Source: Lama glama
Taxonomy: Eukaryota
Direction of reading: 5' to 3'
NCBI GenBank assembly: GCA_028534125.1
Contig: CM052816.1
Location: 16,060,001 to 16,124,000 of the forward strand
DNA: 64,000 nt
Under the pieces are notes generated by a model. That model did no database searches. It was not told the origin of the DNA and saw nothing but the letters and a program-made list of their open reading frames with translations. Below, in pieces: positions 23,739 through 26,700 of the stretch (the first letter of the stretch is position 1; every line of letters starts with the position of its first letter). A program made the translations under genes and the position numbers.

Positions 23739-26700
23739 GTGACTCCTAGCAGTACCCATGGCGATTAGGCACCCAACATGTCTCACTCCCTCAACCCTCA
23801 GCCTTGCCCCTCCTTGAATCTCTGTGGCTAAGGAGGGCTGGGATCCTGGCCTTGGCTGTCATCTGCAGGTACCAGGGCAGTTCGTGGAAGGCTGTGCGAG
23901 CCTGCCTGGGCTGCCCCATCCGCTGCGGAGCCCTGCTGCTGCTGTCCTGCTATTTCTACTTCTCCCTCCCAAACACAACTGGCCTGCCCTTCACTTGGAT
24001 GTTTGCCCTCCTGGGCATCTCACAGGCACTAAACATCCTTCTGGGCCTCCAGGTATGACATAGTGGGAGGTGGAGGGTCCTCAAGGGGAGGGTGTGGCTA
24101 GTGTGATCTGGTCTTAGCTCAGTACTGGAAGTGGGACTAATTTAGAGGTGGGGCCTATGATGTTCTGGGTTCAGCAGTGGCAGAAAAGGGAGCCAGCTGG
24201 CAGCAAGTTGGGAAATCTTAGAGGAGGCGGGCTCTGGCTGTCCTTCCTGGAGGCCCCCAGCCCCACCCTGCTATCTTCAGGGCCTGGCCCCGGCTGAGGT
24301 CTCTGCGCTCTGTGAAACAAGGAACTTCAACGTGGCCCATGGGCTGGCCTGGTCATACTATATTGGATACCTGCGGCTGATCCTGCCAGGTGGGCCATCC
24401 TCTCTGCCCCCATTTCCAGATCTGCAAGACAGACAGTAAAACATACAACCTCTTTCCAAAACTTGCTGTATTTTTGAAAGCATTTTCATGTCTAACAAAC
24501 CAGTTGATTCCCAAAGCAATCCTGTAGGCATGAAGGTTATTATTATACCTGGTTTATAGAAAGAAATTTCGGGCTTAGATCCATTAAGTAACTTGTCCAA
24601 AGTCACCCATGAATTCTTTTAAATATTCATGCTTTGTACCCTTCATGTGCATTTTCTCTTCTAATTCACACACTGTGAGGAAGGGATAATCATCAAGCCT
24701 GTTTTAGAGATGAGAAAATTACTGTTCTGAGAGATAAAGTGACTTGTCCAAAGTCACACAGTTTAATGAGAGGAGACAGGATTTGAACTCAGGTCTGTCT
24801 AGAGCGTGGACCCTTGACTACCCCACTGGGAGCCCATGGGTCATGTCTCATTCTCCTGACTTGCCTGCCAAGGCTATGTTTCTCCCATATCTTATTGCCA
24901 CCTCCCATTGATCCCAGGGCTTCCCCTAGAGGCCTAGATCAGTGTACCTGAGGTTGCTGGGAATGTCACCTCCTAGGGCTTTGCCTCCTCTCAGAGCCCT
25001 GAAGGCTGTGGTAGGAAGGAGTGGGGCTGACAGAAATCTGGACAAAGGACAAGTGATGGGAGGAAGTGTGGGGGGGTAGGTGGAAAGGTGGGAGGGTTAC
25101 CAGACATTCTGCCCCTCCTGGCCTCCTGGCAATGAGAGTGAATTGGCCCCTTGGTTCTCTTGCACCCGCACATTGAGGGAACCGATGACCTGGGTCTCTG
25201 TCCTGGATTGGGTGGAAGACAGGGTTAGTGGGAATGACTTCTTGGGCCTTTCCACCCCAGGGCTCCAGGCCCGGATCCAGACTTACAACCGGTTCCACAA
25301 CAACGTGCTCCGGGGCCCAGGGAGCCACCGGCTGCACATCCTCTTCCCGTTGGACTGTGGGGTGCCTGATGACCTAAGTATGGCTGACCCCAACATTCGC
25401 TTCCTGAACGAGCTGCCTCAGCAAAGCACTGACCGTGCCGGCATCAAGGGTCGGGTTTACACCAACAGCATCTATGAGCTTCTGGAGAACGGGCAGCAGG
25501 TGAGCGTGCAGGCAAGTGGGTACTGCCGGGAGCAATCAGGCCCAGAGACCAGAACTCTGGGCCCTGGCCAAGCACTGATAAAAATTCACTGCCCTTTTCT
25601 GAGCCTCAGTTTCTCCAGTTGGTCCCAGGGCTGGGCAAGATGAGCTCTGATGATAATGATAATTAACGCTTATTGAGTACTTACTGTGTTCTCAGTGCTT
25701 CATCTGACCCCCTCATTGAATCCACAGTACCACCCTGTTGGGTAGGGACTGTTATGATCCCTACTTTACAGAAGAGAAAACTGAAACTCAGAGAACCAGC
25801 AAGAAAGTGGACTATTTCAACCTGAGTATACCATGTTCTTGACAGTAAAGCTGCCCTAGATGAAGGCTATGAGGATTTTGACATCCATGCGGATGTCTGA
25901 AGGATTTCACATGGGCTGGGGGGAACTCAGCCAGGGTTGAACTCCAGAGTCCAGTCCCCAGACTTGACTTCCAGCTGGAGGAGTTGACAGCCTAGCTCAG
26001 TGGGCCTAGCTCTGGGAATCTTAGGAGGATCTTGGAAGGGTAAATTGAACACAGCCCTGGCCCTAATTTCAGGAGTTGGGTGTCAGAGACAAAGGCCAAC
26101 TAGAAAGCACAGACCTCCATCAGGTGGCCACCTCCCAGGACTCCATCTCTACAGACTGAGCAGTGGCACTGGGGTACAGAGCCTATCTGCCTGGTCCCTG
26201 GTTGAGTCTGGTCTTCCTCTTACCTCCTCCAGGCAGGCATCTGTATCCTGGAGTATGCCACCCCCTTGCAGACCCTGTTTGCCATGTCACAGCATGGCCA
26301 AGCTGGCTTTAGCCGGGAGGATCGTCTTGAGCAGGCCAAACTTTTCTGCCGGACGCTGGAAGACATCCTGGCAGATGCCCCCGCGTCTCAGAACAACTGC
26401 CGCCTCATTGTCTACCAGGGTGAGGGGTTGATAGGCTGGAGAAGAGTCAGGGGTCGCAGGGGTCTCCCAGGGGGTCAGAAAGAGATATGGCAGAACCATG
26501 CTCTGGGCCTTCCCAAGTGGTCCAGGCATTCAAGCCCTGCCTCTTCTCCCTTTGGGAGAGGGGATACTTGACTGCTTTCTAAGATCTTTGGCTATGTGTC
26601 CTGGGTGGAGGGTGAAGAGGTGGGCTCTAGGGGCCCTCACTTTATCTAGGGATCCCAGAAGAAACAGAAGAGCCACAGGCCAGGAGCCAAGAGACCAGGG

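Follow-up and report, generated by a model that had tools for sequence, protein, structure and literature searches.

Introduction

Compensated pathogenic deviations, in which one species has as its wild type a residue that causes disease in humans, are a well-known phenomenon. The STING1 gene of the llama (Lama glama) provides a candidate case: in the window considered here, that is, the whole stretch of 64,000 nucleotides analysed (CM052816.1:16,060,001-16,124,000, forward strand, assembly GCA_028534125.1), to which all positions refer, the encoded STING carries Leu147, the residue of the human allele V147L, together with Thr in the place of the hinge lysine Lys150. V147L is one of the gain-of-function (GOF) alleles of SAVI, the STING-associated vasculopathy that begins in infancy. 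The gene and its product are already annotated, and what is new is another instance of a human disease residue as wild type elsewhere; no mention of camelid Leu147 or Thr150 was found in the literature search.

The nearest described system is human V147L itself. As reported in PMC9747920, this mutant is constitutively active and its cryo-electron microscopy structure (8GSZ) resembles agonist-bound STING, with connector and transmembrane domain in an active-like state, while in the apo protein the two residues 147 of the dimer lie too close to each other for larger side chains. In the same source V147A was inactive and V147I was constitutively active, like V147L. A deep mutational scan of human STING (PMC13421317, supplementary file 5, sheet on interferon (IFN) GOF, where 0 denotes the wild type and the colour scale runs up to 2) gives 2.13 for V147L, 2.33 for V147M, 0.16 for V147I, -0.51 for V147A and -1.06 for V147T, as well as -0.25 for K150T, 0.06 for K150R and 0.48 for G151R, the columns having been assigned by counting from the wild-type blanks and from column W161, which was empty in each of the six rows reached, with several anchors agreeing in each row. 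Both sources thus disagree on V147I. The near-wild-type value of the scan fits with Ile being what about a third of mammals have as wild type; the proposal that Ile147 is itself autoactive, which derives from PMC9747920, is opposed by this value. The "V147L" found in PMC11027309 is a residue of slc2a3 and is irrelevant to STING.

The second system consists of engineered proteins in which a GOF hinge residue is combined with loss of the hinge lysine. According to the main text of PMC12857359 (supplementary figures S1, S5 and S7 of which carry the underlying data), the autoactivity of human N154S is impaired when K150 is changed to N, S, Y, V, F, R or D, and K150N inhibits the IFN-beta promoter's activation by V147L and V155M of human STING and by V146L and V154M of the mouse protein, C206Y, R281Q and R284S not being suppressed. 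The double mutants V147L/K150N, V155M/K150N and N154S/K150N (9VXT, 9VXU) were resident in the endoplasmic reticulum (ER), silent at rest and responsive to cyclic GMP-AMP (cGAMP), with cGAMP binding, trafficking and gene induction retained in the presence of K150N. Homozygous N153S mice are embryonic lethal, and K150N/N153S mice were healthy and reported as fully normal; the mechanism proposed is the loss of constitutive iRhom2 binding. The distance from the valine to the hinge lysine is four residues in the mouse (V146...K150) and three in human (V147...K150), as given in the same source.

Finally, chicken STING (PDB 6nt6-6nt9) has a native Leu at the connector position. Its hinge reads E-L-T-E-S-S-K-K-N-V-A-H-G in 6nt6, with Leu at the equivalent of position 147 and Ser at that of 150, and binding of cGAMP converts the protein from an inactive to an active state (PMC9747920). 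It is therefore like camelid STING in the residue at the connector position and in having no Lys at the 150-equivalent, and it is inactive without ligand, but differs in possessing lysines two and three residues further on.

The hinge of camelid STING

Positions 24308-24322 read CTC TGT GAA ACA AGG and encode L147-C-E-T150-R151 of STING1. The codons for Leu147 and Thr150 had been noticed in a preliminary description of the window, and the letters of the window, the translation of exon 3 and the camelid database records all agree with that observation. Since residues 1-36 of exon 3 align without gaps with residues 138-173 of full-length human STING (phmmer against PDB chains), the human numbering, which the preliminary description had carried over, is valid for L147, T150 and R151. 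The second-best PDB match to this exon, 8gsz, also has Leu at 147, and is named in PMC9747920 as the structure of the V147L mutant. Llama and human V147L therefore share the same residue at a collinear position of the connector helix, with 33 of the 36 aligned residues of the exon identical (144, 150 and 151 differ). However, in the human allele it is a Val that was replaced, on a K150/G151 background, and the allele is dominant and pathogenic, whereas the camelid Leu is fixed, probably derives from Ile and is accompanied by T150/R151.

The camelid hinge sequence is C-E-T-R-N-F, with no Lys from 148 to 153, and residues N154 and V155 are wild type. With Thr and Arg at the two places where a hinge lysine may stand, camelids have neither the human-type nor the mouse-type hinge lysine. 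As regards SAVI-type features, the activating hinge residue (Leu147) is present and the required hinge lysine is absent. In an AlphaFold2 model (mean pLDDT 76.7), which cannot separate active from inactive states of STING, helices span residues 141-150 and 155-185; positions 147 and 150 share the first of them, one turn apart, a spacing compatible with, but not proof of, direct interplay between both residues.

The state is common to the sampled camelids. Fifteen of the 16 members of the camelid 90%-identity STING cluster were examined; two of these 15 are STING-beta forms lacking the hinge region, and in all 13 records that contain it the L147/T150/R151 hinge is identical. The records, among them NP_ and direct GenBank entries, belong to five species (Camelus ferus, C. 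bactrianus, C. dromedarius, Vicugna pacos and Lama glama); what is pathogenic in human STING is thus wild type in 13 of 13 records. The preliminary description had allowed for the codon being an assembly error, which is excluded at the species level. That the codon is an artefact of assembly or annotation, or a variant confined to the animal that was sequenced, is hardly conceivable given the same hinge in several independent assemblies and mRNA-derived entries from five species, the clean splice sites of exon 3 and the intact coding sequence. Furthermore, 14 DNA runs from several studies each contained a share of 0.96 or more of the words sampled from 23400-25600, although these shares do not resolve codon 147, and five RNA-labelled runs, with 0.34-0.42 of the sampled words of the same interval, were uninformative on this codon. 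Since both Old World and New World camelids have it, the Leu147/Thr150 state predates their split.

Six residues are fixed in all five camelids and absent from the 95 other mammal sequences described below: L147, T150, H274, A304, I330 and F353. Two of these six lie within four positions of each other, for which the probability by chance is roughly 0.2, and this clustering was not counted as evidence. H274 (elsewhere mostly Asp, and Tyr in human) sits in the 273-275 loop, which forms a dimer-dimer contact in the cGAMP-bound active filament (PMC12857359). Residue 230 is Thr in alpaca and llama, and Ala in Camelus as well as in 63 of the 95 other mammals; in human STING, G230A belongs to the HAQ/AQ alleles, reported in an eLife paper to prevent SAVI disease in mice.

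These unique positions bear on the idea that camelid STING is partly primed, with L147 lowering the threshold, raising tonic signalling or sensitivity to cGAMP, and T150 or other residues trimming ligand-independent ER exit, so that the lineage would have a more reactive DNA-sensing pathway. A more easily primed STING was one of the two alternatives raised in the preliminary description, the compensated pathogenic residue being the other. In favour of priming, the residue at 147 is precisely that of a strong GOF allele in human, the effect of K150N on V147L is worded in PMC12857359 as inhibition, which may be incomplete, and two of the six unique residues lie in the connector and a third, H274, in the filament-contact loop. 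This alternative is nevertheless improbable: two unique sites within four residues are expected by chance about once in five, dominant STING GOF is severely harmful in people and mice while the K150N/N153S mice of PMC12857359 were fully normal, and the literature on camelid immunity gives no STING-linked basal interferon tone, a 2026 review of the subject mentioning neither STING nor cGAS. A particular version, in which L147 would hold the connector near the active state while the loss of the lysine would block only the iRhom2-dependent spontaneous ER exit that underlies the pathogenicity of the human allele, yielding a sensitised sensor with a lower need for cGAMP or with more tonic signalling, is put forward as a long shot.

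Comparison with other mammals

A homologue search with exon 4 (79 amino acids) yielded 156 matches, of which the best 120, all mammalian STING, were used, and 95 non-camelid sequences of at least 300 amino acids were aligned. Position 147 is Val in 58 and Ile in 32 of them, and Leu in none; the remaining five are uninformative (four badly aligning isoforms without this exon and one gap), which leaves 90 alignable sequences. In addition, 109 cetartiodactyl sequences from ten clusters were examined, covering Bos, Bubalus, Ovis, Capra, Oryx, six deer genera, Sus, Phacochoerus, Catagonus, Hippopotamus and many cetaceans. Fourteen lack the region and all 95 others, which are further non-camelid sequences, read I-C-E-K-R. 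The possibility, raised in the preliminary description, that Leu147 is common across mammals is consequently refuted, Leu being found in 0 of 90 alignable mammals and 0 of 95 further cetartiodactyls.

Position 150 in the first set is K in 67 sequences, Q in 12, E in seven, R in four and G in one, with four uninformative, and is never T. The description of K150 as a ubiquitination site agrees with the literature (PMC12857359), yet this lysine is absent in 23 of 88 other mammals (about a quarter), and in 13 of the 88 lysine is missing from all three positions 150-152. Position 151 is R in 53 sequences, K in 18 and G in 12, with others in the rest.

These distributions bear on the candidate suppressors that had been suggested for Leu147, namely T150/R151 or Y71. 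T150 is kept as a candidate, backed by the K150-substitution experiments of PMC12857359. R151 was discarded as a lineage-specific suppressor, R or K being the majority mammalian state and G151R scoring above wild type in the human GOF scan (+0.48, PMC13421317), and so was Y71, since Tyr71 also occurs in three other mammal sequences (P0058, P0059 and P0082) at a site that is mostly Cys.

Three of the 18 listed SAVI alleles correspond to the wild type of some mammal: V147L, R281Q and F279L. Gln281, the residue of R281Q, adds another naturally occurring disease residue to STING, found as wild type in ten of 100 mammal sequences. Its carriers are pteropodid bats (P0083, P0096 and P0098: Pteropus, Rousettus and one sequence pairing with P0083 in the tree), seals, sea lions and walrus (P0088, P0110-P0113 and P0117) and Thomomys (P0106).

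A FastTree phylogeny was built from 66 near-full-length sequences; in it the camelids group as a single clade (support 100) within an artiodactyl clade with the I-K-R state (support 98). Since the camelids are nested within I-K-R artiodactyls, I147L and K150T both map to the camelid stem, where the only change to Leu at position 147 in the tree is placed. Residue 147 of the camelid ancestor was most likely Ile, not Val, and, if the ancestral codons were ATC and AAA, each replacement would have taken a single base change. The stem branch is long (0.087 changes per site), and the minimum numbers of changes on the tree are at least 11 for position 147, at least 11 for position 150 and at least 19 for position 151.

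STING beyond mammals

The wider comparison included 86 representatives of 50%-identity STING clusters, of 250-520 amino acids, the most distant being less surely aligned. The equivalent of residue 147 is Ile in 32 of them, Leu in 22, Val in eight, Met in seven and another residue or a gap in 17. Native Leu or Met is thus present in other non-mammalian STINGs besides that of the chicken. Leu occurs in Gambusia, Ptychodera and a coral, and Ile in Latimeria, a gecko and Callorhinchus. Met, the residue of V147M, the other human SAVI allele at this site, occurs in a bird cluster of 57 members (P0139, Buteo and others), in Corvus (P0150) and in Rhineura (P0138), in every case together with Lys at the 150-equivalent; the Buteo relative is only about 43% identical to camelid STING. 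Because chicken STING with Leu is regulated by its ligand, Leu at this position is compatible with a regulated STING in other backgrounds.

These data speak for the alternative that L147 is neutral in the artiodactyl or camelid background regardless of T150, the position being a generic hydrophobic one of the connector, where Leu would not activate a protein that already accommodated Ile, and T150 the result of drift at a labile site. The variability among the 86 representatives, the switching of chicken STING (PMC9747920), the Met-K150 combination of raptors and corvids and the Leu of Gambusia all agree with it, as do the lability of positions 147, 150 and 151 in mammals, the long camelid stem and the absence of a comparative link between L or M at 147 and the loss of K150. 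However, Leu is autoactive in human V147L and in mouse V146L, whose hinges are nearly identical to the artiodactyl one. Moreover, no other sampled mammal has Leu in spite of at least ten switches between Val and Ile, which suggests selection against it, and non-mammalian STINGs, only some 35-45% identical, are weak guides. Neutrality independent of T150 is accordingly regarded as possible though not likely. The significance of Leu147 is lowered by two points: the ancestor most likely had Ile147, and the site is I, L, M or V in non-mammals, including the Leu of chicken.

A proposed compensated residue at the connector

The interpretation that we favour, with about even confidence, is that camelid L147 is a compensated, or masked, pathogenic deviation: STING would remain autoinhibited and dependent on ligand, with T150 as the likely permissive or suppressor change. 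It rests on Leu being autoactive in both mammalian backgrounds tested, on its absence from every other sampled mammal and on the severe harm caused by STING GOF.

On the camelid stem, Ile147 would have been replaced by Leu and Lys150 by Thr, both neighbours in the short connector helix, through which the membrane and cGAMP-binding domains are coupled. Leu at this site forces the connector of human and mouse STING into an active-like state and leads to ligand-independent ER exit and interferon signalling, a hinge class of GOF that requires the hinge lysine missing from camelid STING. By analogy with the engineered K150N double mutants, the camelid protein is predicted to be silent at rest and still switched on by cGAMP. 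K150T would most plausibly have been fixed first, rendering I147L tolerable, because substitutions of K150 are neutral for ligand-driven signalling; the fixation of a strongly autoactive allele is implausible because homozygous N153S mice die as embryos. Both the operation of this epistasis in camelid STING and the sequence in which the residues changed are inferred. Camelid STING differs from the engineered proteins in having Thr instead of Asn, in being natural and fixed, and in about one residue in five with respect to human STING. In relation to compensated pathogenic deviations in general, the case stands out in that experiments on the human and mouse proteins back a specific second-site suppressor.

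Several points weigh against this interpretation. The K150 substitutions given in the main text of PMC12857359 do not include Thr, and V147L is paired there only with K150N, which "significantly inhibited" it. Both camelid changes trace to a single evolutionary event, so that the co-occurrence of L147 and T150 carries no statistical weight, and about a quarter of the other mammals lack K150 as well, including those with no lysine at 150-152. Among 67 wider STING representatives there was no association of L or M at 147 with the loss of K150 (L/M: eight with K and 15 without; I/V: nine with K and 30 without). Because raptors and corvids carry Met together with K150, loss of the lysine is clearly not the sole route to tolerating L or M. 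The ancestor probably had Ile, and the step to Leu may have been small; in addition, the constitutive activity of V147I in PMC9747920 conflicts with the scan, which bears on the role of side-chain shape. Finally, the literature search found no functional study of camelid STING. Besides the 2026 review, PMC5934658 names camel records only as STING-beta homologues and PMC7733315 was matched through the species name of the ostrich, Struthio camelus, neither having anything on the camelid hinge.

The STING1 gene and its surroundings

The coding sequence of STING1 comprises six exons, all with AG/GT borders (Table 1), which give an intact spliced sequence of 1137 nucleotides (378 amino acids plus stop). 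Orthology is indicated by best matches to vertebrate STING and by a collinear exon structure. Pfam recognises PF23417 (STING_TM) at residues 44-152 (134 bits) and PF15009 (STING_LBD) at residues 154-337 (249 bits). The product is 100% identical to the STING of Vicugna pacos (P0128, XP_015094990.1), and differs by one residue from the Lama glama record and by seven to eight from those of Camelus. C88, C91, R232 and R238 are kept in all five camelids, and the tail carries the LxIS and PLPLRT/SD motifs; functional roles of these motifs are described in part in PMC9747920.

Table 1. Coding exons and hinge codons of STING1 in the llama window
Feature	Positions	Strand	Remarks
Coding exon 1	23512..23738	+	residues 1-76, ends with the first two bases of codon 76; located by tblastn of camelid STING, AG/GT borders
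Y71 codon TAC	23722-23724	+	within coding exon 1
Coding exon 2	23869..24052	+	up to Q137; TM3-TM4
Coding exon 3	24281..24389	+	G138-P173; connector helix, connector loop, start of ligand-binding-domain helix 1
Leu147 codon CTC	24308..24310	+	residue of human SAVI allele V147L; camelid-only among sampled mammals
Cys codon TGT	24311-24313	+	between L147 and T150
Glu codon GAA	24314-24316	+	between L147 and T150
Thr150 codon ACA	24317..24319	+	replaces hinge lysine K150; T in 0/95 other mammal sequences
Arg151 codon AGG	24320..24322	+	common mammalian state; Gly in human
Coding exon 4	25261..25499	+	ligand-binding domain
Coding exon 5	26233..26419	+	holds camelid-unique H274 and A304
H274	26293-26295	+	camelid-unique, within coding exon 5
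A304	26383-26385	+	camelid-unique, within coding exon 5
Last coding exon	26985..27175	+	C-terminal tail with LLIS and PLPLRTD motifs, then stop
I330	27026-27028	+	camelid-unique, within last coding exon
F353	27095-27097	+	camelid-unique, within last coding exon

Two alternative starts were observed in the gene. An in-frame ATG lies 45 nucleotides 5' of the canonical start (23467-23511) and would add 15 residues, comparable to the predicted 393-residue "isoform X1" of Camelus and Vicugna; the CAG immediately before the canonical ATG resembles a usual exon start. Furthermore, an intronic ATG ahead of the ligand-binding-domain exon (25185-25260 into 25261-25499) opens a frame of 230 amino acids, made up of 25 intron-encoded residues followed by the downstream exons, which differs by six residues from a "STING-beta" record of Camelus bactrianus, an isoform without the transmembrane domain and without residue 147. 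Upstream of the first coding exon, at 22275-22310, there is an AT-rich short tandem repeat (ATT-like, period 9 or 15, 2.4-3.6 copies). Downstream of STING1, exon matches to ECSCR (endothelial cell-specific chemotaxis regulator) lie at 39021-51843 on the + strand, and read-through models that join STING to ECSCR are among the "STING" isoforms predicted for dolphins.

Implications

If T150 silences L147, camelids would confirm in nature, and over more than 11 million years, that GOF of the hinge type depends on the hinge lysine, a dependence that was not reported until 2026, for engineered proteins of human and mouse, and on which a proposed SAVI-inhibitory peptide is based. Should the sensitised-sensor version be true, "primed" would be split from "autoinflammatory", a safe tuning of STING would be shown, and it could contribute to the mild course of some viral infections in camelids. 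If, on the other hand, T150K were to unleash no activity, Leu147 would be an ordinary neutral substitution.

A human disease residue in another species is not in itself evidence of altered physiology: position 147 is Val or Ile in other mammals and Ile, Leu, Met or Val elsewhere, and the same caution applies to the SAVI residue Q281, wild type in seals and fruit bats. In camelids, Leu147 is probably a silenced, harmless change.

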